From the sequence record PQ758395: a DNA stretch of 64,000 bases. One strand, 5' to 3'. Positions 1-17,973 of this stretch are shown here, piece after piece. A program made the translations under genes and the position numbers. Below the pieces are notes generated by a model. That model was given only the letters and a program-made list of their open reading frames with translations, was not told the DNA's origin and searched no databases. Position 1 is the first letter of the stretch, and each line of letters begins with the position of its first letter. This stretch comes from Escherichia phage phita32.

Positions 1-2528
1 GTCCTTATCAAGCTCAGCGTGTTTCTGCAATCTTCCTAAGACGTGCCAGAGCTGGCAGGATTATTGAAGTCACCTGCAATATGCGAGGTTTCAAATTTAA
101 ACCTGGTCGTTACGTTACAATGGACCTCCCAAGTATTGGTATAGTGGGCCAAGAAATGAGGGTTCTTGAATGGGAGTTCACCAAAAATGGCGGTGTCAAG
201 GTAAAACTTCGTCAAGATGCTAAAGAGTGGAATGATGCCACAGGGCAACTTCCGGATTCCGGCGATGTAGATATTCCGATATCCCCGTCCGGTGTAGCTC
301 AGCCGCAAAACTTCAGATACTCCGTTCTCCAAGCTGGGGAAGTAACTCACGGTGTTTTGGCTTGGGACAACGTTGGAACTTACGCTCAAAATATTGTGCA
401 GGTAAGAAAGAACGGAGAGATTGTTTGGACAGCACAGACAGTTGAGCAGTTTGTCAAAGTAGAAGGCTTGACCAAAGGGTCATACACAGCAACCGTGGTT
501 GCAACATCTTATAAAGGTGGTGTATCTCCGGAAGCATATTGTGAGTTCAACATTCAGGCACCTGAAGCTCCTGTTTCTGTGGAGGTTAAACAGGGATACT
601 TTGCTATTACCCTGATCCCGCACAGCAGAGACTTGGCTAGTGTAAGCACCCAGTACGACTTTTGGACATCTGGGATGACAAGATTGCCAGATACCAGTGA
701 TGCAACCGTTACTTCAAAAGCCACTCGTATGGGTGTTGGTTCAACTTGGACATCTGAAGGTCTGCAGAACGATAAGATTTATTACTGGTATATCAGGACA
801 ACAAATGCTTTTGGTTCATCTGCTTTTGTGGAGTGTGCAGCCCACTGTTACACATCCATAGAAGATCTTATGCCACAGATTGATGCTGAGTTCAAAAAGA
901 CAGAGACTTATAAAGAGCTTACCGCCAATCTTGATAATGCAGTCAAGGAAATGGATAAAAATGTTGGTGCAGTCAATGACCGTGTTACTAGCATTTTTGA
1001 AGAGCTTGGGGATACAATAGAGGGTGTTGTCAGAGAGACGACAGAAAAATTTACAGGGGTTAATGGAGAAATTTCTACCCTTAACAGTAAGCTGGTAGCA
1101 GCTCAGCAATCATTTGACGATAAACTTGCAGCAGAGTCTGGTAGGCTTGGGTCACTAATCGAGACAACAAATAGATCAACCGTTGATCTTGTTAATCGTA
1201 AAACTCAAGCATTGAGTGAGCAAATAACTGCAACTCAAGGTACTCTGCGGGAAGAGTTGAAGAACACTGAGAGCAAACTTAACTCCTCTATTCAAGAAAC
1301 CAACAAGGCAACAACAGATCTGCTAAATAAGACAACGGAAGCTATTAAGCAGGATCTGGTGGCAGCTACAGGGAAGATCACCAAGCTGGAAGATGATGTG
1401 CAGAAAGAGGTTGCCAATCTGCAAGCATCTATTCAAGAAACTAATAGTACAACAGTTGATCTTGTTAATAATACAGCCACAGCGATCCGTCAAGAACTTA
1501 CCTCTGCAAAACAAGAAATTGTTGACGAAATGGGTAATATTGATGAGCTCAGGGCTACAGTATCTAATACCTCTAAAGCTGTAACAACACTTGAGGGTAA
1601 AATAAATGCTCAGTGGGGAGCTAAGATTCAGGTAGACTCTGCAGGGAATAAGTATGTTGCAGGTATCCAGCTAGGCATGGAGGGGTCTGGAGGACAAGTT
1701 CAATCCTACTTCATGGTTAGTGCAAACAATTTTGCGGTATACAACCCTGGAAATGGAACAGCAACCCTTGCTTTCGCAATCAAGAACAACCAAGCGTTCT
1801 TGAAAGACGCTTTTATAGAGAATGGCACGATCTCCTCTGCCAAGATCGCACAAGAAATTTCGTCAAACAACTACGATGGCAACGGGTACCATAAATACGG
1901 TTGGTACATTAACAAGAACGGGCGCGCCCAATTTATGGATGTGTGGGTGAAAGGCAACATCAACGCCAGTTCTGGTAACTTCACAGGGGCAGTTAACGCC
2001 ACCAGTGGTACCTTCCGTGGAGATGTTTATGCCAATAATGGTAACTTTAGGGGTACCATAGATGCAACTGGAGGTACCTTCCGTGGGCGTGTAGAAGCTT
2101 CTGTTATCCGTGCTAACCAGTTCGAAGGTGCAATAGTTGCACACAGAACCTACGGTGACTGTCCTCCAGTATACAACTCGCAGCAGAGGGTTTGCCGTTG
2201 GAGGTGGAGATATGTGGACAACGTTTCAGGACAAGGTAAGAACGTAACATTCTTCTTTAAACTAAACGGAACATTGTCTGGCTCCCAGCTTAACGTTTGG
2301 ATAGCCGGACATCAAATCCTTGCAGGTAAGAAGTACGGAAACGACAACAACGGCATGTGTGCGGTAGGGATAACTGGTCTAGGTGAACAAACTATAGACA
2401 TTATTGTCGAGATTTACACACCGTGGTCAACGTCTAGCGTGACAGGTGTCACAATCTCCTGTCCCACTGTGATCGTTAGTCGTTCTAACTCAAGCTTCCA
2501 GGGACCTTGGAACGAGTCTCACGACTAA
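1..2528 (+). CDS. Tail central fibre / host-specificity protein, J-like (5'-partial; frame open to window start)
   Basis: Frame is open from nt 3 with no stop before the ATG at 81, so the N-terminus lies upstream of the window. Long coiled-coil heptad region, a segment KINAQWGAKIQVDSAGNKYVAGIQLGMEG..SYFMVSANNFAVYNP resembling the conserved domain of lambda-J-type tip proteins, and Gly-rich GNFTG/GTFRG repeats. Terminator follows. Confidence 0.55.
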   Translation, partial: PYQAQRVSAIFLRRARAGRIIEVTCNMRGFKFKPGRYVTMDLPSIGIVGQEMRVLEWEFTKNGGVKVKLRQDAKEWNDATGQLPDSGDVDIPISPSGVAQPQNFRYSVLQAGEVTHGVLAWDNVGTYAQNIVQVRKNGEIVWTAQTVEQFVKVEGLTKGSYTATVVATSYKGGVSPEAYCEFNIQAPEAPVSVEVKQGYFAITLIPHSRDLASVSTQYDFWTSGMTRLPDTSDATVTSKATRMGVGSTWTSEGLQNDKIYYWYIRTTNAFGSSAFVECAAHCYTSIEDLMPQIDAEFKKTETYKELTANLDNAVKEMDKNVGAVNDRVTSIFEELGDTIEGVVRETTEKFTGVNGEISTLNSKLVAAQQSFDDKLAAESGRLGSLIETTNRSTVDLVNRKTQALSEQITATQGTLREELKNTESKLNSSIQETNKATTDLLNKTTEAIKQDLVAATGKITKLEDDVQKEVANLQASIQETNSTTVDLVNNTATAIRQELTSAKQEIVDEMGNIDELRATVSNTSKAVTTLEGKINAQWGAKIQVDSAGNKYVAGIQLGMEGSGGQVQSYFMVSANNFAVYNPGNGTATLAFAIKNNQAFLKDAFIENGTISSAKIAQEISSNNYDGNGYHKYGWYINKNGRAQFMDVWVKGNINASSGNFTGAVNATSGTFRGDVYANNGNFRGTIDATGGTFRGRVEASVIRANQFEGAIVAHRTYGDCPPVYNSQQRVCRWRWRYVDNVSGQGKNVTFFFKLNGTLSGSQLNVWIAGHQILAGKKYGNDNNGMCAVGITGLGEQTIDIIVEIYTPWSTSSVTGVTISCPTVIVSRSNSSFQGPWNESHD

Positions 2529-2536
2529 CCTTTAAA

Positions 2537-2563
2537 GCCCCGCTTCGGCGGGGTTTATTTTTA
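2537..2563 (+). terminator. Intrinsic terminator (GCCCCGC-TTCG-GCGGGG + T-run)
   Basis: GC stem with TTCG tetraloop followed by TTTATTTTT immediately after the stop at 2528. Confidence 0.6.
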
Positions 2564-2633
2564 TGCTCAGATTGACTATTGTTACAAAATTTGGTAAAAT
2601 ACCTTGTAGAGATTTTCATACCGGAGGAGTGAC

Positions 2634-4124
2634 GTGGCTAAGTATGGATTGACAGAGGCTGGTTTCGTTATACCAACCCTAAATGACCTAATCGTTGAAA
2701 CTAAGCAAAGCCTGATCCGTGCTTTTGGCGAAAACTTCAACGTACAGAGTAACTCCGTTGCAGATAAGCTGACCACTATCTTCAACGAGCGAGAGTATCA
2801 ACTTATTCTTATGGCAGCATCTGTATACGCATCACAGACGCTGTATGGGGCAGAAGGTATCTACCTAGATGAGCTTCTTGGAAGACAGGGTATTTACCGA
2901 AGAGGCCGTTCTAAATCATCAGGTACCTGCCAGTTGACAATCAACACAACTGTGCCGTACAATATGATTTATGATTCCAAAACTTATACGCTGGACAGTG
3001 GCAACTTTGTTCTTAGCAACGATGTGCAAGTAGCAGGGAATCTTATTGCTCACAGAATAAATGCTCCAGACCTAAGGATTGGGAAATACAACTTCCAAAT
3101 TACCAACCAGACAGATGGAAGTATCAAAACAAAAAGCCTGGTTTTAACAGATAAATCTCTGGACTCTTCTGATTTGCCAAGCTTTTACGGAGAGATTAAG
3201 CAATTCATTGTCGATAATACAACCCTGTTGAACGACGATTTGATTCAGATCGATATGTTGACAGGAACGTTGTGGATAGGGTACAATTCGAATCTTGATC
3301 AAGTTGGACTTAACAGTAGGGTAGATTTCAGAGTATCCCCGATTGTAGGGGAAAGAACTATCACACTGGATGTTATCGCTAACGAGGCTGGTGAGCTGTC
3401 AAGAGAAGCAGAAACCGTGACAACAATGTCACCTACTCCTAGTGGATTTATCAAGCTTACCAACCGAGAAAGATTCAATGAGGGCAGGGATGTTGAGAAA
3501 GACTCAGAGTATCGCTTAAGAGCTTCCAGCACAAAACAGTTAACATCTAAGGCTACCCGTCCTGCAATCCTTAGCGCTGTAAGCGAGGTGAAAGGTGTTG
3601 AGAAAGTGAGAGTGTTCTCCAACAACACCGATAAAACTGATGCTAAAGGTATACCTCCTTACAAGTTCCAAGTGGTTGTGTTTGGTGGTGCAACGGAGGA
3701 CATTTGCCAAGCACTTTACCAAACTATAGCCTGTACGAACAGGACTTATGGTAATATTTTCTACGATGTCACTACATCTGACGGTCAAACTGAAAGAATT
3801 TATTACTCCAAGGCAAACACCTACCGCCTAGATGTAAGAATTACCTACTCCGGTGCTGCGCTTTCTACAACCGAAAAAGATGCCATTATAGAGGCTCTTT
3901 TGCAGGTTGTTAACGGACTGGATGTTGCAGATACGTTGTATAATATCCAATTGGTAGGTGCTGCATCTGCTGCTGTGTCAATAGGCAGATTTAATAGACT
4001 GGTAATTCAAGTTAAATCCGTAGGAGCTTCTGATGAAGCTTACACTACAAACGATATTGTTGCGAACATGACCGAGGTGTTTGACCTCGACGAAAGTAAT
4101 ATAACTTTCCAACAAACTATTTAA
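2634..4124 (+). CDS. Tail/baseplate structural protein (496 aa)
   Basis: GTG start with GGAGG RBS; position directly after the J-like gene; N-terminal region loosely reminiscent of baseplate-J-type proteins (not verified). Confidence 0.4.
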   Translation: MAKYGLTEAGFVIPTLNDLIVETKQSLIRAFGENFNVQSNSVADKLTTIFNEREYQLILMAASVYASQTLYGAEGIYLDELLGRQGIYRRGRSKSSGTCQLTINTTVPYNMIYDSKTYTLDSGNFVLSNDVQVAGNLIAHRINAPDLRIGKYNFQITNQTDGSIKTKSLVLTDKSLDSSDLPSFYGEIKQFIVDNTTLLNDDLIQIDMLTGTLWIGYNSNLDQVGLNSRVDFRVSPIVGERTITLDVIANEAGELSREAETVTTMSPTPSGFIKLTNRERFNEGRDVEKDSEYRLRASSTKQLTSKATRPAILSAVSEVKGVEKVRVFSNNTDKTDAKGIPPYKFQVVVFGGATEDICQALYQTIACTNRTYGNIFYDVTTSDGQTERIYYSKANTYRLDVRITYSGAALSTTEKDAIIEALLQVVNGLDVADTLYNIQLVGAASAAVSIGRFNRLVIQVKSVGASDEAYTTNDIVANMTEVFDLDESNITFQQTI

Positions 4125-4135
4125 GGCGGCGAGAT

Positions 4136-4822
4136 ATGGCAGAGATTAAGTCGGATGTTAACCACATCCACACTCTGCCAGATTTTGTTCAGGGAGGTCT
4201 TGACTACCTACCTGGAGATTTTCTGGCTGAGAAGGTTAATTTAGTCACATTCTTAACCGTATACCTTAAAAGGTTGGAGGATGTTGATAAGATGCTGGTA
4301 GGTTTGGCTGAAGGAAGATTGCTTAACAATGCCAGCGGAAGATACCTTGACGAAGTTGGTAATCAACTTGGTATTCTTAGGAATGGACTTTCAGATGCTG
4401 ATTTTCGTGCCACACTAATTATTCAGCAGGCCGCAGCATCAAGGGGCGGGACTCGCGAAGATGTCATCTCCACCTTGCGACAATTGTTCGGAAGAGACAA
4501 TTTCGATACGTGGAAAGGAGACAACTTCAGGTTTGACATAAATATTAGAAAAACTTGCTTTGACATATTGCAGTCTATCGATCAGATCTTAGATATGCTA
4601 CCATTACCTTGTCATTTGCGTCTTACAGAATCGCAAGGGCAAGCTTTTGGTTTTGAAGGGGACTCTACAGCTCTTGGCTTCGGATCAGTGTGGGAAGAAA
4701 ACCAATTCGGAGTTGGTGGGCTGGCTACTTTGCTATATGTTCCTGACGTAAGACCTGATTGGGACACCACAACCATTTATTGTGAAAGTATTACAGTAAA
4801 CGCAACTAGACAGGAGGGTTAA
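4136..4822 (+). CDS. Tail/baseplate structural protein (228 aa)
   Basis: ATG with GGCGG/GAG RBS-like upstream; co-oriented in the tail operon. Confidence 0.35.
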   Translation: MAEIKSDVNHIHTLPDFVQGGLDYLPGDFLAEKVNLVTFLTVYLKRLEDVDKMLVGLAEGRLLNNASGRYLDEVGNQLGILRNGLSDADFRATLIIQQAAASRGGTREDVISTLRQLFGRDNFDTWKGDNFRFDINIRKTCFDILQSIDQILDMLPLPCHLRLTESQGQAFGFEGDSTALGFGSVWEENQFGVGGLATLLYVPDVRPDWDTTTIYCESITVNATRQEG

Positions 4823-6894
4823 TGGCAACAGCTGTTTTTAAACCTTACCGTGATTACTCTACAATGGCTGCACAGTTTCATTACCGAACAGTTCAGGATA
4901 CTGCCGTTCCTGGTAGGGATTATAATCATGTTGAGGGCGATGTAACTATCCCAATTGGGGCAACCAGTATTGAGATCCCAGTGGAAATTGTTGACAAATT
5001 ACCCAACAGGTTGCCAAGAAGCTTCTTTATGGAGTTTTCATCAAAATCCCAAGGGGTAATGATTGGAACACAAAGGGCGAAATGTACAATAGTTTCAGAT
5101 GAGAATCTCGACAGGATATCTTGGGATACTGTTGAGGAGAGAATGTTCCACCCAAGATATTGGGTTACAACTACTCAGCAGACTGAAAGTACCTGTATTG
5201 TTGCAGATAACAACTGTTGTATTAACCGTTTAGTGTCAAGAACATATGGGGGTATGGCTGGGTGCATTTGGGAAACAGTTGACAAGTATGACCATTTCGG
5301 CATTGGGTTTGATGATCACTATGAGATGAGAAACACCAAGCTTTGGTTCAGAATGTCAATAACCAACGCCAGCAACTTCTCCACTCCTGAAAAGATGATT
5401 ATGACTGTAGACCTTGTTGATGGCACAATCATCTATGTTCCTTTAGCTCAATATGCTGTCAGCATCTCAGAGGATAAGAATGTTGCAGAAATTCATATTG
5501 ATTTCGAGGACTGCGTCGGGATGGACCAGAACAACAACATGATGGGCGTTGATCCCCGACAGGTGAGAAGGATTCTAATACCCCTTATGCCTAAAGATTG
5601 GGTAAGTAATAGCACAGACCCAAGAACGGAAAATGTAGAGTGCGAGTTGCGTCTAGATCTGCTTCAGCCAGACACAGGTTGGAAAATGATGCAACTTAAC
5701 AATATCCAGGTGAAAGAGCACGACGTTGGGATCTGCACAGCATATGACGATATGTGGAACGTATCTCCTTTAAGGGTGTTGAGCAATATCAAGCGTCTGG
5801 GATATACCGGAACCATAAACCATTATGTGGGTATGAGTCATTATTATGACTACACATGGTCAGGAACTCAATGGTCTATAAACAGAACAGGGGCGCTAAA
5901 CGCTGCAGCTTATAAATGGCATGATGATTTTATGTACAATGCCAAACGACATAACTTCGACGTTATGCAGTCTGTAAGTTTTGAGCTTTACAGCGATGCC
6001 TGCCCGTTGGAATGGACCCAAAGAGACTGGAACGATAACTATGCTAAAACAGGGTATACACCTTGTAGCTACCTCCTGTCTCCAACCATTGAAGAGGGTA
6101 TGAATTTCCTTACTGCAGTATTTAAGAATTTTGCATCATCTGCTATGAGAAACAACCTGCCAGTGATTATGCAGATTGGTGAACCGTGGTGGTGGTTCAA
6201 TACCGATACTCGTAAGCCTTGTATTTATGACTACCCTACAAAACAAGCGTTTTATGATGAGACTGGTGAATATGCACTAGACATTGGGACTATTGACGAT
6301 CCTAAAACTGGCGGTGTTTATGACAAGTATGTAGCATTTTGTCGTGGTAAGCTTGGCGCTCGTATTGCGGCTATTTCAAAGGCAATAAAGGCACACGCTG
6401 CATCAGCTCAGATGACAGCTTTGCTGTTTTTCCCAACCATTATGGAAACCGAGCTTACGCAAAAGCTGAACCTTGCTGACCAATACAAAAAGGAAGCAGG
6501 AGCTCTTGATTTCTTCTGCACTGAGTGCTACGATTGGGTGATGCAGGGAGGTATTGAAAAGGCAAAAGAGTCTGTAAACATACCTATCGTTAAGTTAGGT
6601 TGGCAACCGTCTGAAATACAATACCTTGCAGGGTTCGTTCCTAGTAAAGAGCTTGCTCCGGTATATGGCTACGACCCAACTAGGAATTACCAAGAATTTT
6701 TATGGAGATGTATTTGCGGAAACATGGCAACTATAGAGTATAGATACCCTGAGGTAAAACAGTATGTGTGGGCATATCCGCAAGTAATGTCTGACAGCAT
6801 CACTGTTACCGCCAGAGATTCTACCGTGCTTCATATGGGGCAGGTTGCTCTGAAAGGGTATGTAGAAGATGTTGTCCCGCCAGACTTCTCATAA
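4822..6894 (+). CDS. Tail fibre-associated protein (690 aa) with N-terminal Ig/Calx-beta-like segment
   Basis: TAATG stop-start overlap with the upstream gene; N-terminal VEGDVTIPIGATSIEIPVEIVDK beta-sandwich-like motif; large Trp/Tyr-rich C-terminal domain. Confidence 0.4.
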   Translation: MATAVFKPYRDYSTMAAQFHYRTVQDTAVPGRDYNHVEGDVTIPIGATSIEIPVEIVDKLPNRLPRSFFMEFSSKSQGVMIGTQRAKCTIVSDENLDRISWDTVEERMFHPRYWVTTTQQTESTCIVADNNCCINRLVSRTYGGMAGCIWETVDKYDHFGIGFDDHYEMRNTKLWFRMSITNASNFSTPEKMIMTVDLVDGTIIYVPLAQYAVSISEDKNVAEIHIDFEDCVGMDQNNNMMGVDPRQVRRILIPLMPKDWVSNSTDPRTENVECELRLDLLQPDTGWKMMQLNNIQVKEHDVGICTAYDDMWNVSPLRVLSNIKRLGYTGTINHYVGMSHYYDYTWSGTQWSINRTGALNAAAYKWHDDFMYNAKRHNFDVMQSVSFELYSDACPLEWTQRDWNDNYAKTGYTPCSYLLSPTIEEGMNFLTAVFKNFASSAMRNNLPVIMQIGEPWWWFNTDTRKPCIYDYPTKQAFYDETGEYALDIGTIDDPKTGGVYDKYVAFCRGKLGARIAAISKAIKAHAASAQMTALLFFPTIMETELTQKLNLADQYKKEAGALDFFCTECYDWVMQGGIEKAKESVNIPIVKLGWQPSEIQYLAGFVPSKELAPVYGYDPTRNYQEFLWRCICGNMATIEYRYPEVKQYVWAYPQVMSDSITVTARDSTVLHMGQVALKGYVEDVVPPDFS

Positions 6895-6906
6895 TCAGGA
6901 GATAAA

Positions 6907-7947
6907 ATGTCAAAACCTAGTTTTCCATTAGAGATTTGGGCAGAGGAGGATCAGGTTCTGCCTAACACCCACAGACAGAACAGGCTACGCCCGATTGATG
7001 ATTTGTGGAGAAAAGGTTGGGATCTCGGTCAAAAGCCCTCATGTGAAGAACTTAACTATATTTTCAATATGCTCGGAACTTGGGCAAAATACATTGCTGA
7101 CGAGCAGATCCCAGCTCAAGAAGGCCGTTATCTGGTACGTGATAATAACTTGAGTGATCTTTTGAACATCCCTGTTGCCCGTAGAAACCTTGGGATTATT
7201 ACTAAGGAAGAGGCAGACGCCAGGTATGTAAAAGTTACAGGTGATACAATGACAGGCCCATTGGGTTTGCAACGTATCAACTTTAAAGCTGCCGAGACAG
7301 ATAAGGCTTGGATAGAGACAACTATTGGCCCAGATAAGACAACTCTCGACTTTGGGTTAAGTGATAATACCGGGTCGTTTGATGATGGTGGTACATCTAC
7401 AGTGGATGCGTTCCGTTGGAGATTCCAGCCAACTCAGCCGGATATTAATCCAGAGTTCACTTTGATGTACCTTAACGCGATCACGGCTAACCGTGCGCTG
7501 TTGAAAGTGGTAGGCAATGTTGAAGTTGTCGATAACATGAGGTGCAATAACCTTACTATCAGCAATACAGCGACATTCACCAACTGTAATGTGGCTAGTC
7601 AGTTGACGGCTGGGTCAGTGTATGTTAATGGTGGTGCAAGTTGTGACAGTATGGTTGTAAGAAGCCAGCACTGTGTTGTCGGTAACAGAAATGTGGTTCG
7701 CTCTGTGAACGGAGTGACGGCTAACGGTAACGGTGATGTAACGATCACTATCCCGCAGACAGGTGTGCAAGACATCAGAATCGGTGCAAGACTTGTGGAC
7801 GGAGTTTCTGAATCTCCAATCCGCAACGGCTACGTTGTCACAGGCTGGCATTTCGGTGACAAAAAAGAGATGCGTGGTTCAACCTACTGGGCAGGACCTT
7901 TACAAAAACTTGTAAATGGTCAATGGATCACTGTTAATTATGCATAG
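6907..7947 (+). CDS. Tail fibre protein, paralog A (346 aa)
   Basis: Shares N-terminus (PLxIWAxxDxVL..GW..) and C-terminal 14 aa (LQKLVNGQWIT-V/I-xYA) with the ORF at 8959..10005; central region differs. Confidence 0.5.
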   Translation: MSKPSFPLEIWAEEDQVLPNTHRQNRLRPIDDLWRKGWDLGQKPSCEELNYIFNMLGTWAKYIADEQIPAQEGRYLVRDNNLSDLLNIPVARRNLGIITKEEADARYVKVTGDTMTGPLGLQRINFKAAETDKAWIETTIGPDKTTLDFGLSDNTGSFDDGGTSTVDAFRWRFQPTQPDINPEFTLMYLNAITANRALLKVVGNVEVVDNMRCNNLTISNTATFTNCNVASQLTAGSVYVNGGASCDSMVVRSQHCVVGNRNVVRSVNGVTANGNGDVTITIPQTGVQDIRIGARLVDGVSESPIRNGYVVTGWHFGDKKEMRGSTYWAGPLQKLVNGQWITVNYA

Positions 7948-7961
7948 ATCGGAGGACTAGC

Positions 7962-8546
7962 ATGAAAATACTTCAAGAGTTTAAACTTTACCAACCGGGA
8001 TCTGGCGAATACCGCACCAACAAGGAAACCAAGGAGCTGACCCCTCAAGAGGTTGAGGATTACACAGCATACACTGGGTATTTTTTACGTAATGATGATG
8101 GCGATTGGTATGTGCAGTCACGAACATTGCGACAAGAAAATCCGGGTTGTATCTTCCTACTTGTTGACGAGAAGGGAATTCTTAAGACATCTACAGAAGA
8201 ACCTGATGCCTTATGGCCTGCTCCAGGTCTTCGTGTGGTTATCGCCAAAAAAGAAGAGGTACCAGAAAACATTATGCTTCACCACGACGCTTTGCGTTTA
8301 GTTGGTGATGAATTTGTCACAGACAATGAATTCTTTGTTCAACAGGCAGAGGGTGTCATAGAGACAGAACTTGCTTGGGCTACTGCTAGAATTGGTGCCT
8401 ATCAAGACATGATTGACCTTGAATATGATCTTACTGATGACCAGAAACGTAACATCAGAGATTTGAAAATGTACAGGGTAAAACTTCTTGAAATAGATAC
8501 ATCTAAAGCCCCTGACATTTTCTTCCCGGAGCGACCTACCCTCTAA
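7962..8546 (+). CDS. Putative tail fibre assembly/chaperone protein (194 aa)
   Basis: Small gene immediately downstream of a tail fibre gene, as is typical for Tfa-type chaperones; GGAGG RBS. Confidence 0.3.
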   Translation: MKILQEFKLYQPGSGEYRTNKETKELTPQEVEDYTAYTGYFLRNDDGDWYVQSRTLRQENPGCIFLLVDEKGILKTSTEEPDALWPAPGLRVVIAKKEEVPENIMLHHDALRLVGDEFVTDNEFFVQQAEGVIETELAWATARIGAYQDMIDLEYDLTDDQKRNIRDLKMYRVKLLEIDTSKAPDIFFPERPTL

Positions 8547-8557
8547 GAGGAGGTGTT

Positions 8558-8872
8558 GTGGAGTTGGATTTGGCGGCATTGTACGGTATCTGCATGGGTA
8601 CCGTTGTCCCGATCTGTGTATGGGCTTTCAACCAGTGGCACACCAAATGGAAAGGCATTTCCAAGAGGTTGGATGAACTGGAGAAAGACCTCATCTTAGT
8701 GAAAAACAGTATGGTTACAAAAGATAAACTTGATTCCGTTATCGAGACCCGGTTAAGCAAGCTAGAGGCCGATATTAACGACCTTAAGCAGGATGTCAGG
8801 ACAGATGTTTCCGGTATCCGAGCTGATGTACAAAAGATTTTGCACATGCTCGTAGAGCATAGTAAAAGGTAA
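8558..8872 (+). CDS. Membrane-anchored coiled-coil protein (104 aa)
   Basis: GTG start after AAGAGGAGG RBS; N-terminal hydrophobic helix then heptad coiled coil; topology resembles i-spanin-like or fibre-associated proteins. Confidence 0.3.
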   Translation: MELDLAALYGICMGTVVPICVWAFNQWHTKWKGISKRLDELEKDLILVKNSMVTKDKLDSVIETRLSKLEADINDLKQDVRTDVSGIRADVQKILHMLVEHSKR

Positions 8873-8958
8873 ACAAAGGTCAGAACGGAAAGGACTCCGT
8901 TCTTGCATTTTGTTCTCTAAAGTGTTAAAATATTCCTAAGGAATTTTCTCAGGAGAAC

Positions 8959-10005
8959 GTGATGACTAAACCAGTTATCCCTCTTGATATTTGGGCCAAT
9001 CAGGATGTTGTGCTTGAAAATACGGGAGAATTGAATAAGTCTCAACCGAAAAAAGAAGATAGATTGAGAGGTTGGGATATGACACAAAGAGTGGCATGTG
9101 AAGTTGTTAACTTTGAACTTCACATGCTTTCTGCGTGGTTAAAGCATTTAACAGAAGATGTTGTCCCAGGATGGGATAATAGATTCTTAAGGGTCACTAA
9201 TAATCTAGCAGACGTTCCAGACAAAGCTGCTGCACGTCAAGTTCTCAATGTATACTCGCCTGAAGAAATGGACGATCTATATATTGACAAGTCCGGAGAC
9301 ATAATGACTCAGACTCAAACTTTAGGTCTTCAAAGAATCGAGTTTGCATCTGCGTCAACAGACAATGCGGCAATATATACCACCATAACTCCAGACAAGA
9401 CGACGATGGATTTCTGGATTATGGACAACATCGGTGGTGCTGACGGCACAGACCTTGATGATCCTTCTCACCAAATAGACGGGTTCCGTTGGAGATTTCA
9501 ACCTTCGGGTGGGCAGCCTGTGTTTTCGGCTATGAAGCTCAATGCTATAACTGCCAACCGTGCAAGACTGGCTATCCAAGGAAATCTTGAATGCAACGAT
9601 GCAAAAAGTTCCTCTGCAAATGCCAATGCAGTCACGATACCAAGAGCCACTGTTAATGGACAACAATCCTGCGGAAGCGCTCAAATAGGTGGAAGAGTTG
9701 ATTGTAACGATGAAACCGTCAGGGGCCAATATGCAACAGTTGGTGGAAGAAACGTGGTCCGCAGGGTAAATGGTAACGGCGCAGACAGTAGTGGTAACCT
9801 TACTATTCCTATGCCTAGCAGAGGGGTTGATGATGTAAGGATAGCAAACCGTTTCAAAACCACCTACAGAGAGTCAAGAGTCTACCCTGGACATGTGATG
9901 TGCTCTGGTAACTACGCTTATAAACACCCTTATCAAGGTGACTACTGGACAGGTGCTATCCAAAAACTTGTAAATGGTCAATGGATCACTATATCTTATG
10001 CTTAA
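8959..10005 (+). CDS. Tail fibre protein, paralog B (348 aa)
   Basis: Paralog of 6907..7947 (shared termini); AGGAGAA RBS. Confidence 0.5.
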   Translation: MMTKPVIPLDIWANQDVVLENTGELNKSQPKKEDRLRGWDMTQRVACEVVNFELHMLSAWLKHLTEDVVPGWDNRFLRVTNNLADVPDKAAARQVLNVYSPEEMDDLYIDKSGDIMTQTQTLGLQRIEFASASTDNAAIYTTITPDKTTMDFWIMDNIGGADGTDLDDPSHQIDGFRWRFQPSGGQPVFSAMKLNAITANRARLAIQGNLECNDAKSSSANANAVTIPRATVNGQQSCGSAQIGGRVDCNDETVRGQYATVGGRNVVRRVNGNGADSSGNLTIPMPSRGVDDVRIANRFKTTYRESRVYPGHVMCSGNYAYKHPYQGDYWTGAIQKLVNGQWITISYA

Positions 10006-10016
10006 AAAGAGGGTAA

Positions 10017-10283
10017 ATGAAACTAACTCAGTTTTTATGGGGACTGGTTGCGGCATCTGATGACCCTACGAAAGTGTCCCAATCTAAGCTATGGTCGAAC
10101 ATAGGCATGGCGGTGATGACTGGGGTGTTTATTCATATGGGGTATAATGATACGCTTCCTGAATGGTATGCGTGGATATACGCGCCTTCAGTAGCTTGCC
10201 CCCAGCTTATTAGCAAATTCATCTCGCTCCGGTGGGGTTGCCAGCACCCTGACCACGTTAAAAACGAAGAGCAAAAAGCTTAA
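10017..10283 (+). CDS. Hypothetical small protein (88 aa), one hydrophobic segment
   Basis: ORF with GAGGG RBS directly after the fibre gene. Confidence 0.3.
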   Translation: MKLTQFLWGLVAASDDPTKVSQSKLWSNIGMAVMTGVFIHMGYNDTLPEWYAWIYAPSVACPQLISKFISLRWGCQHPDHVKNEEQKA

Positions 10284-10292
10284 GGAGAAATC

Positions 10293-12038
10293 ATGGCGCA
10301 AGACATGACAAGCTTTGAGCAGGCGGTAGATCAAGTAATTGTTGATTCTGAACGTTTGCACCTGATTGTCAACGGTAACGCTGTGGATGAAGTTGTCGTA
10401 GAGGATGGGACCACCATCCCTACGGTACGAAAAGCCATGCTTGACACCCTTTATTTTAAAACGCCGCCGATCCCTTGGGCGTATGGTGCATCCACAACAG
10501 TTTTTAACCAGCTATATGAGTTTAAAGGGGACACAGGCCCTCAGTGGTGGTACGCTCCCGCAGCATCAAAATCTAACCCGGTTAGAATGCCAGCAGATCC
10601 TTCACAATCTCCAAACTGGAGATTATATACCGACTCTGCAGTAATGGCAAAATACTACGCAAAACTTAACAGCCCAAGGTTCGAAGGTGACCCGCGAGTA
10701 CCTACACCTCCAATGGACGATAAGTCAGAGTCCATAGCAAACACAGAGTTTGTTGTTGACTATGTTGATAGCATATTTAAAGCCATGGAGGGGATGAAAG
10801 TTACTGTAGGGTCTTTGGTGGTAAAAGGTCTTACAGAACTCGCTAACACCATAGTTGGAGGCACCCTTACCTTACATGGGCCTGTTAATGGAGCAGATTC
10901 TACTGCACGCTTCAGGAACCTAATCCTCACGGCAAATACTTCTACACTTACTTTTGCGTGGAGCGATCCTAAGCATGCAGACTGGAGAAGCACAGAGCTG
11001 CAACCTCATGAAGTGTCCACCCACAGGATTATAGCTGACACTATAACTTCTGGGAAACCAGTGGCTAATAATAACGATGTACATTTTGATGGTCTGGGTA
11101 ATAACTTTTTTGACTACGTGTACATTCGTGGTAATGCCATGAAGGCAGCAACCGAACCGACATTGCAGGTCGATGGGACCACCAGGGTTAAGAACCTAGA
11201 GGTGACAGGTACCGTTACAGGGATAACCTACTCTGTAGATGGCACCATGATCTACCCTAGCTATATTGAAAGCACTGGTGACGCATTGATAAATGGCGAT
11301 TTGGAGGTTGGCGGATCTGTAGTTATTCGAGGTACAGCCTCTATCCAAAACATAGCTCTGAATACCCTAAGAGTCAATGAGCGTGCAACTTTTGAAGGGG
11401 AAGGGCTTACAGCTAATAAAGGTACAATTACCGAGCTGACAACCACCACTTTAACTGCAACAACTGCAAACTCTGAAAACTGCAACGTTACCCGCAACTT
11501 GCGGGTAAATGGGGATGTTAGTTTAAACGCAGCAGGTACGGGTACCACCTCTGTTCACAACCTTGAAATATCTGGCACGGTGACTGGGTGGCTGCCAGAC
11601 TTCTCTAATGTCAACTTTGTCTGCAACGGCATTAACTCTAGTGGTAAGATAACCACCTCTCAAGAAATTGAGGCTGGTAAAACTATTACTGCCCCTACTT
11701 TCCACGCAGGGAAGGTAGATTTTGATCTAGAGGAGGTTGACGCGTCCAGTGGGACATGGACACCTAACGGGCAGGCCAGCATGTATGTTGTCCACGCGAA
11801 AGGGGATTTTACAATAGGACAGTGGCCTGGGACATCAGCGGAAGATAAACCTTATCCATTCACTGCAGTTATCTATGTCATTCAGGATGCTATAGGTCAC
11901 AACGTGACTTTGCACGATAAGTATGCTATCCTGTCGGCAACACCTGTTATTAACAACAAGGCTAACAGTGTTACCTTGCTGCAATTAACATATTGTGGTG
12001 TTGGTGATATCGTAGACGTAGTAATCGCACAACGTTAA
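10293..12038 (+). CDS. Tail fibre / structural protein (581 aa)
   Basis: AAGGAGA RBS; Thr/Gly/Asn-rich repetitive beta-type sequence typical of fibres; terminator follows. Confidence 0.4.
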   Translation: MAQDMTSFEQAVDQVIVDSERLHLIVNGNAVDEVVVEDGTTIPTVRKAMLDTLYFKTPPIPWAYGASTTVFNQLYEFKGDTGPQWWYAPAASKSNPVRMPADPSQSPNWRLYTDSAVMAKYYAKLNSPRFEGDPRVPTPPMDDKSESIANTEFVVDYVDSIFKAMEGMKVTVGSLVVKGLTELANTIVGGTLTLHGPVNGADSTARFRNLILTANTSTLTFAWSDPKHADWRSTELQPHEVSTHRIIADTITSGKPVANNNDVHFDGLGNNFFDYVYIRGNAMKAATEPTLQVDGTTRVKNLEVTGTVTGITYSVDGTMIYPSYIESTGDALINGDLEVGGSVVIRGTASIQNIALNTLRVNERATFEGEGLTANKGTITELTTTTLTATTANSENCNVTRNLRVNGDVSLNAAGTGTTSVHNLEISGTVTGWLPDFSNVNFVCNGINSSGKITTSQEIEAGKTITAPTFHAGKVDFDLEEVDASSGTWTPNGQASMYVVHAKGDFTIGQWPGTSAEDKPYPFTAVIYVIQDAIGHNVTLHDKYAILSATPVINNKANSVTLLQLTYCGVGDIVDVVIAQR

Positions 12039-12047
12039 TATATCTAA

Positions 12048-12073
12048 CCGCTCCTGACGGGGCGGTTTTCTTA
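12048..12073 (+). terminator. Intrinsic terminator
   Basis: CCGCTCC-TGAC-GGGGCGG hairpin followed by TTTTCTT. Confidence 0.5.
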
Positions 12074-12086
12074 TCTGGAGAACACA

Positions 12087-15000
12087 ATGCTTCCAATCCC
12101 TTTGCTAAAACTTGGTCGTCATTTCCTCGATAAGAGGGGTGGAATTAAGGAACTTGCTGTTCTGTCATACCCAATAGACAACAGTGATGGTACAAGCAAC
12201 ACAGTATCCTATGTAAATAGCTTAGCTATACTTTTTGATGATGGTCAGCTTAATATTACTGGCTATAATAAGTTCGGAGAGTGCCGCACCGGGGATCGTA
12301 GCCCTATAAACTACCCGAGCGAAACAGCCTGGAATGTTGATCATGTGTGGAGAGCAGACCGTGCGTTTGTGATCCGGACTTTTGATAATCAGTTTTTCTA
12401 CATCGGTTGCACTGCAGGTCTTATCGGATCCACTGCGGCAGGCGGTAATGATGTTTGCGTAAACGAGTGGACACCTCTTCCAGAACAGATTGTTAAAGGA
12501 TTGCACCTTGACACTCATCCAGAGCGCCTTATTGAGGTGATGGGCGGTATTAACAACACTATCTGGGTTATTGCAGAGGCAGAAGGCACTGGCATACTTA
12601 ACCTATATGGATCTGGTAACAACACCTACGGATCTTTGCATGTAGATAAAAATCAGCATGCAACCCCTGTAAAGATTGGTGAGACATCGGAAAATCCTGA
12701 AACAGGACCTTGGAAAAACCCAAGCATCAACTGCGAGGTGCATGACAACTCTGTTATTTTCGGTGGTCCTAGAGGTTTCTGGATTGCTGGATACGACTTT
12801 CTGAGAAATAACAGTAGAAACGACCTTGTTTGGCCTCCTGTGCAGATTACTCGTAACGATTTGAGGGGAATTCCTGCAGATGAGGAGTGGAAAGGGTTTA
12901 TGTGTGGTCCTAACGGGGCAATAATTGCCACACAGAGGATGCATAGACCCGATGACCAGCAGCTTGTTAACGTATTCTACGGGCAAGACGTCTGGGGAGA
13001 TGACACATGGCGTTCCTTAAATATCACCTACACCCATGAGGTGATAATGGCTCGTGGATACGGCACAAGTGGCATTTTCTTCAATAATGGCACTAAACAG
13101 TATCGTGGATTCTCTCGCAACTTGTGTAATGATATTGGTGCACAATCTGCAAACAATAACCCTAGGGCTAATTTTATCCACTATCAGGCTCTTGCTACAG
13201 CTAAATATGTTGAGCAACGCCTGCCAGTTAGCTGGACAGAGAGTGTTTATTTCCAAGGCATCCACAGGGAAGGTTTCTTAGGAACCTTTACTGTTGTTAA
13301 TGGCAAACTTTGGTGGTCAGGCATCCCAAGGGGAAGTTTTGCAGGCTCTAACAACCTGTTTGGCGGCAGACTTAATAGTCAGGGGTTCACAGAGGTTCCT
13401 GAGAATTGGTATAAAAATGTCCCGGTAGACAGTTGGGGTGTTGATGATATTTTCGACGTTAACGGTGTTAGCAGCGTTAGCAATATTTACATTGGTGACA
13501 CGGTCAAGATGAAATTGAAGCCTCAGCCAGAGGGGGCTACGTTCATTATTGACAAGATTGAACTGGTAAATGCTGCAGGCACGGTTGTTACAGATGCAAA
13601 TTACCAATTCTCCACCAACTGGAACCACGGTGGGGCCAACGAAGTTGTTGTTACTCAGTATAACAGGAATGTTAACAGACGTGGCCTGTACTCTGTAAAA
13701 ATAACCTATCATGACAAGCATGGCACAGGAAGAACTCACACGACAAGGACTTTGAACTGGAACACCATAGTTCCTGCGTATCCTTCTGACGGTAAGTGGC
13801 ATACCGTTGGTAGAAACAAGCAGTTCCATGTTAACGATACTGTGTACTTCGGGCTGAATGGGACTCAGCCTGCGGTAGAAGGGGATACATCGTATATGGT
13901 CCGACTCCACAGAATGGATGCTGGATCAGTCACCTATGATGTTACCCAAGAGATTTATGATCAGAGACGAAATACCTACAACAACTTGGTGCAGACACAG
14001 GCCGTATGGGAGTTCAACCCTAACGGCAGAGGTGGTAAAATGTTGCAGGTTAACGAGCAAAACGGAACGTCGTTGACTGTCCACGAACACCCAGACCCTT
14101 GGCCTGATCCTGGAAAACCTCACCCTGGTGCTCGTACACTGAAAATTGTCAGCCATGATGTAGGATATTTCGGAATACGCTGGGAAGCTACAGTAAGATA
14201 TGCCGACGGGACAACAAACAACATAGGGATTACTCTTGGTGGCACTAGTGAGGATAACTCACTGAAAATTGCCTGCACTCCTAGAGGCATCTCTATTGAC
14301 AATATGGATGTTGTTCGCAACGGTTACGGCGATGTGAATGTCAAAGTTACTCTTGGCGAACATCTTGGTGGGGAAAGGATAATCATGTATGCCTTTGATC
14401 ATGATCCACGCACCAATGGAACTTATGCAAATCAGGCATGGAGTTACCTGATAAATGCACCTGAGCAGAATACTAAAGAGTTCTACTATGGTATGAAGCG
14501 GGATGTGTGCAAGAAAACAGGAACACATGACCGGATTGCTATCTGCGTTAAAGATGAGCGCACAGCTTGGGATGAACCTGTTAACAGATGGTTCATAGGT
14601 ATTCCTACCAGAAGTGATAAGTATGTCGCAGAATATATTGTATGCATGGGCGGTACCAACCTGAACATGTGTTGGAACGAGGATGCAAACAAATACTCTG
14701 ATTATGACTATATGAGGGATTACTCTTGTAATCAGTGGTTTAACCAATCAACAGGATACCCTCCACGTCAGGCGAGAGTAAACCCTGCAATCTTCACAGA
14801 TACGCAGGTTTTCTTGACAAAACAGGCCAACGAGGTTCAGACCTTCAAGAATAAATACGATCCTAACAAGTGGTTCTACAACTGTTACGGCGCATTTTTC
14901 TGGGGACCTGGTGAGTTACCTGGTGGAGGATCTTGCTTGAATGAGGCAACTTACGCCAGTGACTACATCATGGGGCAGGTCAAGAAGTATAAGATAATCC

Positions 15001-16403
15001 CAGGTCCTGAGACTCTGGGCAATGCCGTTGACCCTTATATCATCATGACTGCACTGAGATCAAACATGGACGGGACATCCATGTCTATGCAAATTCCGGT
15101 AACAAACGGGTACAAACGTGTTGTGATGATCATTAAGTGCGACTTAATAGGTAAACAAGTTCTTGCAGAAAACGGGACATCCACGCATCCTTTTGAGATT
15201 GCTCTGCACTATCAGTTTGCTGACTCGCCTTTTGCAGGTGATAAGAGAATATCTGATACAGATGCACAGCGTTGTAAGAAAGTATTGTTGGGTGCAGGTT
15301 GGTGGTGGTATGAGTTTGATTTAACAGACAAATTCACCGACACATCTAAAGTTATAACAGGACTTCGTCTAGACCTTGGCGAGAACATGCACAAAGCTGT
15401 TTGTGATGGCACCTATGGTGACCCTACAATATACCTAAAATATATTTCTTTTGAGCATCCGGAAGATGTTGTCTACGGTCCAAAACTGAGATTGTTTGGC
15501 AGTTGGATTGCAAAAGATAGGGTAGGCATGGGTAAGAAGGTGAGAGGGTTCTTGGTTGATGCAGGAACAGAAGACATGCTGGTTAATGCAGTATGGCCTG
15601 AATTACCTGGGACTCAGTGGAACAACTCAGCCAAATCTATAAACTGGTTTAACATTCATAGGGCCATGTGGACCACTAACTGCTACTTGTGGAGAGAGCT
15701 TAACGATCAGGCCTTTGGCTTCAGTGATGGCAGGAGGATGGCGATCATTTGCTGGACAACGCTGCAAAGATGCTATGACCATGACTACGAGATTGGTGGT
15801 AGGGCATGGAAAAATATCAGGGACAGAATCATAACCAATTTTGCAGACGATAACGGTGGTGGAGCACATAACTTTGGCACAAGCCGACTTATCCATTTGA
15901 ATGGATCCTCAGCCTACAAGAAAGAAGGTTACTCCGGGTCCATGATCGAGTGGGGTCTGGTGAAAGATGCTCGCGTATTGATGGGCCAGCAACTTGCTGC
16001 CGCAATAGGCCCCAGCGCAGTGCAGTCGGTTAAACCAGCGTGGTTCGATATTCCATTGTGGTCACCCGGAACACCGGGAACTGCTGCAATCAACCCCACC
16101 ACTGGGGATCTAGAAATCTCCTGGGAGGACTTGAAGCAGGTCGGTGGTTGGGACAAAACAGGGTATCAGGTTCAGTGGTGGAGGGCTGATGGATCTTTAG
16201 CCGCTGATGAGTTTGTTAAGGACAATTTCTACACTATGTCCTCTGCAAAAGCACAGCAATTATTTGGTCAGGCCACTCCGTCAACGATCACCATGTCTAT
16301 GTGCTGTAAAGACAACAGGACTGGAGCTTTGGGGCCAAGGGTTGCTAAGGTTTTCTCAGGTATTAAATGGAATCTCCCTGTCCAAAGTATTTCATGGAAG
16401 TAA
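12087..16403 (+). CDS. Large tail fibre / host-interaction protein (1438 aa)
   Basis: Long ORF with GGAG RBS in the fibre cluster; ends with a single TAA that is in frame with the downstream ORF. Confidence 0.45.
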   Translation: MLPIPLLKLGRHFLDKRGGIKELAVLSYPIDNSDGTSNTVSYVNSLAILFDDGQLNITGYNKFGECRTGDRSPINYPSETAWNVDHVWRADRAFVIRTFDNQFFYIGCTAGLIGSTAAGGNDVCVNEWTPLPEQIVKGLHLDTHPERLIEVMGGINNTIWVIAEAEGTGILNLYGSGNNTYGSLHVDKNQHATPVKIGETSENPETGPWKNPSINCEVHDNSVIFGGPRGFWIAGYDFLRNNSRNDLVWPPVQITRNDLRGIPADEEWKGFMCGPNGAIIATQRMHRPDDQQLVNVFYGQDVWGDDTWRSLNITYTHEVIMARGYGTSGIFFNNGTKQYRGFSRNLCNDIGAQSANNNPRANFIHYQALATAKYVEQRLPVSWTESVYFQGIHREGFLGTFTVVNGKLWWSGIPRGSFAGSNNLFGGRLNSQGFTEVPENWYKNVPVDSWGVDDIFDVNGVSSVSNIYIGDTVKMKLKPQPEGATFIIDKIELVNAAGTVVTDANYQFSTNWNHGGANEVVVTQYNRNVNRRGLYSVKITYHDKHGTGRTHTTRTLNWNTIVPAYPSDGKWHTVGRNKQFHVNDTVYFGLNGTQPAVEGDTSYMVRLHRMDAGSVTYDVTQEIYDQRRNTYNNLVQTQAVWEFNPNGRGGKMLQVNEQNGTSLTVHEHPDPWPDPGKPHPGARTLKIVSHDVGYFGIRWEATVRYADGTTNNIGITLGGTSEDNSLKIACTPRGISIDNMDVVRNGYGDVNVKVTLGEHLGGERIIMYAFDHDPRTNGTYANQAWSYLINAPEQNTKEFYYGMKRDVCKKTGTHDRIAICVKDERTAWDEPVNRWFIGIPTRSDKYVAEYIVCMGGTNLNMCWNEDANKYSDYDYMRDYSCNQWFNQSTGYPPRQARVNPAIFTDTQVFLTKQANEVQTFKNKYDPNKWFYNCYGAFFWGPGELPGGGSCLNEATYASDYIMGQVKKYKIIPGPETLGNAVDPYIIMTALRSNMDGTSMSMQIPVTNGYKRVVMIIKCDLIGKQVLAENGTSTHPFEIALHYQFADSPFAGDKRISDTDAQRCKKVLLGAGWWWYEFDLTDKFTDTSKVITGLRLDLGENMHKAVCDGTYGDPTIYLKYISFEHPEDVVYGPKLRLFGSWIAKDRVGMGKKVRGFLVDAGTEDMLVNAVWPELPGTQWNNSAKSINWFNIHRAMWTTNCYLWRELNDQAFGFSDGRRMAIICWTTLQRCYDHDYEIGGRAWKNIRDRIITNFADDNGGGAHNFGTSRLIHLNGSSAYKKEGYSGSMIEWGLVKDARVLMGQQLAAAIGPSAVQSVKPAWFDIPLWSPGTPGTAAINPTTGDLEISWEDLKQVGGWDKTGYQVQWWRADGSLAADEFVKDNFYTMSSAKAQQLFGQATPSTITMSMCCKDNRTGALGPRVAKVFSGIKWNLPVQSISWK

Positions 16404-16508
16404 ATAGGTGATAACAAGCTGCTGGTTACCCCTGCCTGTCAGTTCAACGCAACTCTTAACGTTGATCCTGCTGTTGCGGCAAACTCAGCTAAAGCTTCTG
16501 ACTTCTCT

Positions 16509-17723
16509 GTGTCTAACACTGCTATGGCAGATGTGAGGAAGATTGACACACTGAACGCCAGAATTACCTGTAAAAACACTTATGGCACATTCCAGATCAT
16601 CAACAACTTCACAGATGCTGATTCTAAGGTAGTGAGGACAGCAAGCCAGACTCTAAGTTTAGGAACTCTGGCCTATGCGGCTCTGATCACTGAACAGTCG
16701 GCAACACTCCAAGGAGGCGGTGTAGGCAAGTCCATTACAACACCTGTGTGGAAGCCAAATGAGTGGGTTGTGTTTGATTTGACTGTGGACTTCTCCAGCG
16801 ATAATAACTGGACATGGGTAAGGAATTGCTTGTCACAACTGATGGGTGGTCCAAGCTCCGTTAGTGATAGCCACGACTCCACTGACCCGAGTGTGTTCCA
16901 GGTAGGTAAAACTCACCCAGAGACTGGAGAAACGTTGCCTGACAGGAAGTATGCTTTGGTTTGCATCTCTTACGGGAAGGCAGATGTCACCTTCTCAGGG
17001 ACACACACTTATAACGGAACCTACGACTTCTCAAGGAAGTATAGTCTCAAAGCAGGGAACATTATAGACGAGGTTGGTGTGTTGTATAATCCAGGTAACG
17101 GCATAGGGATTGTGGGTGGTAAACTGCAGATGCAGGAACCTTCTATTACCCCTTCCAATGTATCCGGGATTAGAAAGACTTGGGAAAGTAGTAATACCAA
17201 CATTGCAACAGTGGATGCTACCACAGGGCTGGTAACATTTAAAGCTACTGGGAATGTCACCATAAAGTTTGTAGTTACGGATGATGCAGGCCGCAAAACG
17301 TCTTCAACATCTTTCACTGTCAAACAGATGGCACCTCAGTGGAGAATGTGGGTAGGCAGGGCAACAGACGGGGCATATCCAAACCCGGCAGGGACTTCAG
17401 GTATGAAGACTTTCTCTGCAAGCAGACCAATGGAGTATGGCAGCGGTCCTAAAGTTGGGCAGATGGTATACTTTGGTGCGTATATCCCTGAAATTATAGG
17501 GCTTCCTAGAAATCAGATTCAATTACTGTTTGGATCTGGCGTTGACGAGCTTGCTACTTTCGGGTATAGCGACAACATAGATGCTGCAAGAAGTTCCGGA
17601 TGGGTGGGGTTCAGACTACAGCTGGCGGTAGAAGGTAGGGTCATGGGGTTCGGATCCATAGGTGCCATGCTTCCTGGTGATCAGCAGTATGATCTTGAAG
17701 CCTACGCAACTTTCTCTCGTTAA
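16509..17723 (+). CDS. Ig-like (Big_2-type) domain protein (404 aa); possibly a C-terminal extension of the upstream gene
   Basis: Segment IRKTWESSNTNIATVDATTGLVTFKATGNVTIKFVVTDDAGRKTSSTSFTV resembles bacterial Ig-like domains. Same frame as 12087..16403, with an open frame from 16404; no convincing RBS before the GTG at 16509 or the ATG at 16524. Confidence 0.4.
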   Translation: MSNTAMADVRKIDTLNARITCKNTYGTFQIINNFTDADSKVVRTASQTLSLGTLAYAALITEQSATLQGGGVGKSITTPVWKPNEWVVFDLTVDFSSDNNWTWVRNCLSQLMGGPSSVSDSHDSTDPSVFQVGKTHPETGETLPDRKYALVCISYGKADVTFSGTHTYNGTYDFSRKYSLKAGNIIDEVGVLYNPGNGIGIVGGKLQMQEPSITPSNVSGIRKTWESSNTNIATVDATTGLVTFKATGNVTIKFVVTDDAGRKTSSTSFTVKQMAPQWRMWVGRATDGAYPNPAGTSGMKTFSASRPMEYGSGPKVGQMVYFGAYIPEIIGLPRNQIQLLFGSGVDELATFGYSDNIDAARSSGWVGFRLQLAVEGRVMGFGSIGAMLPGDQQYDLEAYATFSR

Positions 17724-17737
17724 CGGAGGGGGTAAAT

Positions 17738-17768
17738 AAAAAAGGGGGCCAAATGGCCCCTTTTTATA
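17738..17768. terminator. Bidirectional intrinsic terminator between convergent operons
   Basis: AAAAAGGGGGCC-AAAT-GGCCCCTTTTT: GC hairpin flanked by A-run and T-run, between the + gene ending 17723 and the - gene ending 17770. Confidence 0.65.
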
Positions 17769-17769
17769 A

Positions 17770-17970: not shown

Positions 17971-17973
17971 TTC

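Follow-up and report, generated by a model that had tools for sequence, protein, structure and literature searches.

A known pair of paralogous short tail fibre genes with a single chaperone gene in the rV5-like Escherichia phage phita32

The short tail fibre locus

We analysed a stretch of 64,000 nucleotides from Escherichia phage phita32 (sequence record PQ758395; hereafter the window), with emphasis on two genes for short tail fibres, STF1 and STF2, and on the small genes that follow them (Table 1). An original prediction, made from the sequence of the window, had likened the two fibres to duplicated receptor-binding cassettes that would broaden host range. Both fibre open reading frames (ORFs) are present on the plus strand where they had been placed, as are the three small ORFs. 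The 194-amino-acid (aa) ORF is chaperone-like as suggested, with a match to Pfam family Caudo_TAP (45.8 bits against a cut-off of 22.1) and to PHROG 136.

Positions 6000-12100 show 97.8-98.2% full-length identity to more than 100 GenBank phages of Vequintavirus (rV5-like myoviruses). STF1 is at least 99% identical in 100 records and STF2 95-99% or better in 112. The gene order (wedge, baseplate, NGR fibre, STF1, tail fibre assembly chaperone Tfa, 104-aa gene, STF2, 88-aa gene, 581-aa fibre) and the gene sizes are identical to those of WalterGehring, rV5_ev147 and rV5. In Table S3 of the rV5 study, gp33 (346 aa) and gp30 (347 aa) are short tail fibres corresponding to STF1 and STF2, gp32 (194 aa) is a tail fibre assembly protein, gp31 (104 aa) a membrane protein with one transmembrane domain and gp28 (581 aa) a fibre, while gp29 (88 aa) is listed without assigned product (PMC3606486). 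The annotations of WalterGehring/Bas51 and rV5_ev147 contain "short tail fiber protein" twice and "tail fiber chaperone" once, with one hypothetical protein after the chaperone and another after the second short fibre; upstream stand the wedge, a baseplate protein and a lateral fibre with glycosidase/deacetylase domain, and a lateral tail fiber closes the order.

The gene pair is thus the published pair of rV5 paralogs gp33/gp30, and the phage is another rV5-like isolate. The pair is ordinary, already known from the literature and nothing new by itself. Kropinski et al. (2013) noted that gp30 and gp33 are similar in size, with 42.3% identity, and wrote of "two chemotypes of LPS" (lipopolysaccharide); the proposal that paired fibres broaden host range dates from that work (PMC3606486). 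Maffei et al. (2021) described Vequintavirus as having two paralogous short tail fibers and a chaperone (S5D Fig) and did not see considerable allelic variation (PMC8594841). Our literature search found no paper that tells the functions of gp33 and gp30 apart.

Table 1. Genes and signals of the short tail fibre locus, in window coordinates
Feature	Position	Strand	Remarks
rV5 late-promoter motif TGGTAAAATA (rV5 P036), exact copy	2592..2601	+	5´ of wedge gene; PMC3606486 Table S4C
Baseplate wedge-1 protein (rV5 gp36, phi92 gp145 homologue), 496 aa	2634..4124	+	putative docking partner of short fibres
STF1, short tail fibre paralog 1 (rV5 gp33, 346 aa)	6907..7947	+	docking domain, shaft, Mu-S-type tip
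Tail fibre assembly chaperone, Tfa (rV5 gp32, 194 aa, Caudo_TAP)	7962..8546	+	sole one in window
104-aa protein (rV5 gp31), N-terminal transmembrane helix and coiled coil	8558..8872	+	kept after chaperone gene across subfamily
Terminator-like hairpin AGAACGGAAAGGACTCCGTTCT, then TGCATTTTGT	8882..8913 (hairpin 8882-8903)	+	between 104-aa gene and STF2
Late promoter P030 of rV5, core TGTTAAAATA at 8923-8932	8910..8946	+	1 base off published rV5 sequence
STF2, short tail fibre paralog 2 (rV5 gp30, 347 aa)	8962..10005	+	diverged docking domain, genus-specific tip
88-aa protein annotated as membrane protein (rV5 gp29, phi92 gp144 homologue, PHROG 1322)	10017..10283	+	not fibre-specific
581-aa fibre (rV5 gp28, phiTE gp241-type)	10293..12038	+	putative member of STF2 transcription unit
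Intrinsic terminator (rV5 t028)	12046..12067	+	published; ends STF2 / 88-aa / 581-aa unit

Alignment of STF1 and STF2

The paralogy of the two fibres is confirmed. BLASTP aligns them collinearly with 151/356 identities (42%) and 58% positives (E 2e-93), over the full length, and the similarity is not a matter of low-complexity segments. Nor is only one of them a virion component, since mass spectrometry of rV5 virions detected gp33, gp30 and the chaperone gp32 (PMC3606486). The picture of conserved termini and divergent centres did not hold. The best-conserved long block is central (58% identity, STF1 residues 118-205), the N-terminus lies below average (39% in residues 1-70, 36% in 71-117), and strong internal divergence is found in residues 206-255 only (25%); residues 256-289 and 290-346 have 53% and 43% identity, respectively.

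The N-terminal motif and the near-identical C-terminal residues, about 14 in number, that had been reported as common to the pair are both real: STF1 ends with LQKLVNGQWITVNYA and STF2 with IQKLVNGQWITISYA. The C-terminal motif nevertheless extends beyond these two proteins: as the last strand of Mu-S-type fibre tips it is shared across the family and occurs in Mu S (RPVQKNINGTWYNV), in phiTE (KPIQKKVNGVWVTI) and also in Mu S'. The STF2 gene itself is real as well, but it almost certainly starts at ATG 8962 and not at GTG 8959. An AGGAGA at 8951-8956 lies 5 nt 5´ of this ATG (the spacer from the GTG would be 2 nt), the relatives are annotated at the ATG, and rV5 gp30 has 347 aa.

Domain anatomy of the fibres

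Judged from sequence comparison, both paralogs are composed of a phiTE-type N-terminal docking domain, a shaft rich in beta structure and a small tip at the C-terminus, which is of Mu GpS type in STF1 and putatively so in STF2. The short fibre of phiTE (PDB 9CUY, chain c, residues 1-111) matches STF1 residues 1-108 with E 1.4e-19, and its N-terminus matches STF2 residues 2-84 with E 3.4e-9. In phiTE, the short fibre's N-terminal domain is the joint that binds the wedge-1 protein (PMC11972413), and the homologue in phi92, gp147, has been assigned to fibre III, which points downward from wedge protein gp145 (PMC13450770). At the other end, a profile of 11 family members matches the tips of Mu S (5YVQ/9KI1, E 1.6e-8) and S' (8JU3, E 4.2e-8); STF1 on its own matches Mu S (5YVQ) with E 1.7e-6. 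A weak resemblance of the STF2 tip to a pneumococcal cell-wall-binding repeat (E 0.64) was not trusted. Neither the fibres nor the small proteins reached the threshold with any Pfam family, and NCBIfam had no match for any of the six proteins searched.

One chaperone gene and a trio of membrane-protein genes

A cognate accessory gene behind each fibre gene, as had been claimed, was not supported: there is one chaperone for two fibres, this 194-aa protein is the sole fibre accessory, and the small genes are independent of fibre number. A Caudo_TAP gene lies directly 3´ of STF1 only, STF2 being followed by the 88-aa gene, and tblastn found no second Tfa within the 64-kb window. Compared with PDB sequences, the chaperone gave spurious matches only.

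The small genes were compared with those of relatives that have a single short fibre. In four other groups (Seunavirus NINP13076, Avunavirus-like TH18, Mydovirus VIK251 and Certrevirus phiTE) the order is wedge, baseplate, STF, Tfa, then genes for proteins of ~104-112, ~152-157 and ~86-91 aa, and a ~585-aa fibre. As the 104- and 88-aa genes are present in these single-fibre phages, they belong to a trio of membrane-protein genes that does not depend on the number of fibres. The phi92 homologue of the 88-aa gene (35% identity) is preceded by the endosialidase gene, not by a fibre gene. Nor does the 88-aa gene co-vary with STF2, as it is 74-90% conserved where STF2 is 45-78%. Across Vequintavirinae the trio is flanked by the gene of the fibre chaperone and that of the phiTE-gp241-type fibre; in the relatives' loci of our set it occupies 7686-8755 (L004), 7709-8772 (L005), 7536-8609 (L006) and 5728-6805 (L011).

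The middle member of the trio is a ~157-aa, very hydrophobic and probably polytopic membrane protein. Its gene matches 107 phage records, none of them rV5-like among the matches listed, and has no match within the window. In Vequintavirus, STF2 occupies its slot. For these three membrane proteins no meaningful PADLOC match was obtained, nor any match in Pfam or NCBIfam. Holin-like or superinfection-exclusion roles can be imagined for them, as pure speculation. A role as the missing lysis genes was considered as well, but forms no part of our conclusions; the spanins of rV5-like phages are reported to be encoded beside the terminase, and a holin has yet to be assigned (PMC7344957).

Transcription units

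From the signals in Table 1 we infer two late units, one comprising the genes from the wedge to STF1, Tfa and the 104-aa gene, the other STF2, the 88-aa gene and the 581-aa fibre. P036 is the probable start of the first unit. The position of STF2 as first gene of a separate late unit, likewise suggested by these signals, is an addition of the present analysis. The hairpin and a TGCTAAAATA motif are kept at the STF2 junction of L012, a divergent metagenomic relative.

Duplication and divergence

A neighbour-joining tree of 11 homologues places STF1 beside STF2 as its sister (84% bootstrap), and of the two STF2 has the longer branch. The N-terminal docking domain of STF1 is 59-66% identical to the single-copy orthologues, that of STF2 41-46%. 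The pair thus appears to descend from an old duplication within the locus. STF1 is the conservative copy, which retained the place in the locus, the docking domain and the type of tip seen in the relatives' single short fibre, and STF2 is the fast-evolving one.

A search of protein databases recovered two deeper lineages, L015 and L012, both of which keep the two-fibre layout. L012 is a metagenomic contig (ENA ERZ15185469 NODE_327, 1-9156) and carries a 117-aa version of the 88-aa protein. Identities to the window are, for L015 and L012 respectively, 87% and 74% for STF1, 78% and 45% for Tfa, 83% and 52% for the 104-aa protein, 78% and 45% for STF2, 90% and 74% for the 88-aa protein, and 82% and 63% for the 581-aa fibre. 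STF2 and the chaperone gene are therefore the fastest-evolving genes of the locus. Synonymous sites are saturated between the window and L015; the non-synonymous divergence (dN) amounts to 0.094 in STF1 and 0.159 in STF2. By this measure both fibres are under purifying selection. Both copies are functional.

The tips have a history of their own. In L012 the paralogs' tips are 88% identical over the last 57 aa, compared with 27-59% elsewhere, and in each genome the extreme C-termini are common to both paralogs (QTL on both in L012, NYA and SYA in the window). For L012, a recent gene conversion was rejected as the source of the common C-termini, because synonymous sites of the shared tip are saturated at a dN of 0.10. 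The sharing of the tip is therefore old and is kept at the protein level. The STF2 tip of the rV5 crown group is only 43% identical to the STF1 tip over the same 57 residues. It is at least 95% conserved in 115 records, all of this genus, and falls below 45% elsewhere in the phage collection. Tips similar to that of STF1 occur in phi92, Seunavirus NINP13076 and Avunavirus Av-05 (55-57%; GAP31/EC152 37%), and also in some ~52-kb Salmonella phages.

A model for the fibre pair and its alternatives

We propose the following course of events. A single Caudo_TAP chaperone, gp32, would fold the tips of both paralogs, with which the extreme C-termini shared by the paralogs of each genome are consistent. 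It may even remain bound, as in Mu; gp32 of rV5 was found in the virion. Trimers of both fibres would then be mounted on the baseplate. During infection, lateral fibres would engage the NGR glycan first, after which the short fibres would bind the LPS core as secondary, irreversible receptor. In the rV5 crown group, the differing tips probably read two core epitopes, and this would widen the range of core types or states that trigger contraction. Dependence on the LPS-core genes waaG and waaF is documented for the genus (PMC7229145, PMC8594841, PMC12548472), and effects of waaP or waaY in addition to this requirement have been described (PMC7229145, PMC12548472). Taken as a whole (known pair, duplication, one chaperone, docking at the baseplate, binding of the LPS core and probably two core epitopes), we consider this account probable, though by no means secured.

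Several points weigh against it. Published work assigns a receptor to neither paralog. Screens find one LPS requirement, glucose I, genus-wide, which fits a single functional specificity too (PMC7229145, PMC8594841). L012 has the same tip twice, so two specificities are not a general reason for keeping two copies. The wedge-1 protein measures 494-497 aa in one-fibre and two-fibre phages alike (496 aa here); no extra docking domain or second docking site is therefore evident. The STF2 tip owes its Mu-S-type assignment to the family alignment only, its last 101 aa alone giving no match to Mu S among PDB sequences, with matches at chance level only. AlphaFold2 monomer models (25-sequence alignments) were of low confidence (pLDDT 62.3 and pTM 0.34; pLDDT 57.4 and pTM 0.26), and Foldseek found no PDB match at E <= 0.001 for either, so structure gave nothing beyond the sequence.

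The strongest competitor is a specialisation by position, in which the paralogs would form two rings of short fibres, or STF2 would bridge to gp28, the receptor specificities would be largely alike, and the benefit would lie in baseplate architecture or avidity rather than in host range. What sets the paralogs apart as types is their N-terminal domain: STF2-type N-termini are 50-55% identical between lineages and 34-40% identical to STF1-type ones. The L012 paralogs combine one tip (88%), preserved at the protein level in spite of saturated synonymous sites, with different docking domains, which gives weight to this explanation. STF2 shares its presumed transcription unit with a phiTE-gp241-type fibre, which according to a hypothesis put forward in the phiTE study contacts the STF (PMC11972413). 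The single LPS requirement common to the genus points the same way. However, the tips in the crown group are strongly different (43%), and the highly conserved, genus-specific STF2 tip suggests a ligand of its own; that this tip is both distinct and conserved in the crown group gives weight to two specificities. We regard a mainly positional specialisation as possible but rather doubtful.

The two ideas can also be combined. The paralogs would sit at two baseplate positions (12 short fibres, or STF2 coupled to gp28) and carry exchangeable tips folded by one chaperone, with crown-group tips reading two LPS-core epitopes and the same tip on both fibres elsewhere. One epitope might be, for example, glucose I of the outer core and the other the phosphorylated heptose region, to which the effects of waaP/waaY point. 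This combination, too, we can offer only tentatively.

The original prediction of two self-contained cassettes, each a fibre with its cognate accessory and exchangeable at conserved termini, is improbable. It draws on the small ORFs found after each fibre gene and on the separate history of the tips, as STF2 of L012 has a tip of STF1 type. It is opposed by the single Caudo_TAP chaperone, by the 104- and 88-aa genes standing in the same order in single-fibre relatives (and elsewhere in phi92 in the case of the 88-aa homologue), and by the slow pace of the 88-aa gene next to a fast STF2.

Co-assembly of STF1 and STF2 as heterotrimers, yielding one fibre species, would agree with their lengths of 346 and 347 aa, the collinear alignment and the common extreme C-terminus. 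Yet identity is 42% overall and 25-39% in docking and shaft blocks, and the genes seem to lie in separate transcription units. Fibres of Mu/P2 type are known as homotrimers, and this counts against mixed trimers as well. We think such co-assembly very unlikely. Finally, that one copy is a decaying or redundant duplicate is hardly credible: the non-synonymous rate of STF2 is ~1.7x that of STF1, but more than 100 genomes and two deeper lineages keep both ORFs intact, dN is far below the saturated synonymous divergence, and both proteins are in rV5 virions (PMC3606486).

Rather than two cassettes, then, we favour a duplicated short fibre served by one chaperone and probably directed at two epitopes of the LPS core. 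The rV5-like phages are among the commonest broad-host-range E. coli isolates and are used in therapy and biocontrol cocktails. At stake is which of their many fibres triggers irreversible adsorption. Small additions made here could guide experiments: STF1 as the conserved orthologue and STF2 as the fast copy in a membrane-gene slot, one chaperone gene for two tips, the separate late unit of STF2, and the common tip in the deep lineage L012.

Neighbouring fibres and other observations

Upstream of STF1, positions 4822-6894 encode a 690-aa fibre with Calx-beta, NCTSP_N and N4-gp65-like TIM-barrel domains (the last with a Pfam E of 2e-79). Recent literature describes this fibre, for Vequintavirus and for phi92 (gp142), as the one that binds the NGR glycan.

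The gene at 12087-17723 is that of the large lateral tail fibre with immunoglobulin-like (Ig-like)/intimin domains, the orthologue of rV5 gp27. At 16401-16403 it contains an in-frame TAA where rV5_ev147 and WalterGehring have CAA (Gln). The frame of ~1878 codons is thereby split into 1438 aa and a 404-aa same-frame remainder. The phage may be a true ochre mutant, or the stop may stem from an error in sequencing; the window contains no tRNA, suppressor or otherwise. The Ig-like fibre region (12087-18000) is ~95% identical to its best database matches, compared with ~98% for the short-fibre locus, in agreement with reports that the big lateral fibre genes are allelically variable.

Between 15 and 21 GenBank records of the MG0656xx series, labelled "Campylobacter phage" (host C. 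jejuni), are ~98% identical to the locus, and others are phi92-like. Their attribution to C. jejuni is probably wrong.

Comparison with known systems

The closest system is rV5 itself, from which the locus does not differ materially: gp33, gp30 and gp32 are the same genes, with 95-100% protein identity, in the same order and with P030 and t028 in place. In phiTE and phi92, the short fibre (phiTE gp236, 9CUY; phi92 gp147) has a homologous N-terminal wedge-docking domain, and its locus follows two wedge genes and is succeeded by chaperone and membrane-protein genes, same as here. Both phages have a single copy in place of our two. At 554 aa, the phiTE fibre, which includes a coiled coil and Ig-like domains, is moreover longer, and it has been proposed to bind flagella. 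A paper on a Klebsiella TFP_Y fibre (PMC12671077) was set aside as unrelated, the fibre being Pam3-gp24-like.

Phage Mu offers the closest parallel at the other end of the protein. Its GpS/GpU (S'/U'; 5YVQ, 9KI1, 8JU3) combine a C-terminal tip, homologous to that of STF1 and presumably to that of STF2, with a following Caudo_TAP gene, as after STF1 here, and the LPS core is the target of the Mu fibre and presumably also of the short fibres of rV5-like phages. Mu, however, switches between tips through DNA inversion and has a separate chaperone for each, whereas the window contains two full fibre genes and one chaperone gene. The N-terminal docking domain of Mu is also unrelated to that of STF1 and STF2, which matches phiTE.

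Similarity to T4 gp12 by HHpred was reported by Kropinski et al. in 2013 (PMC3606486); in our searches of PDB, neither phmmer nor hmmsearch found a chain of T4 gp12 at E <= 1. The chaperone in T4 is gp57A, unlike the Caudo_TAP protein gp32 here. What T4 gp12 provides is a functional analogy, its trimers being mounted on the baseplate and binding the LPS core to adsorb irreversibly.

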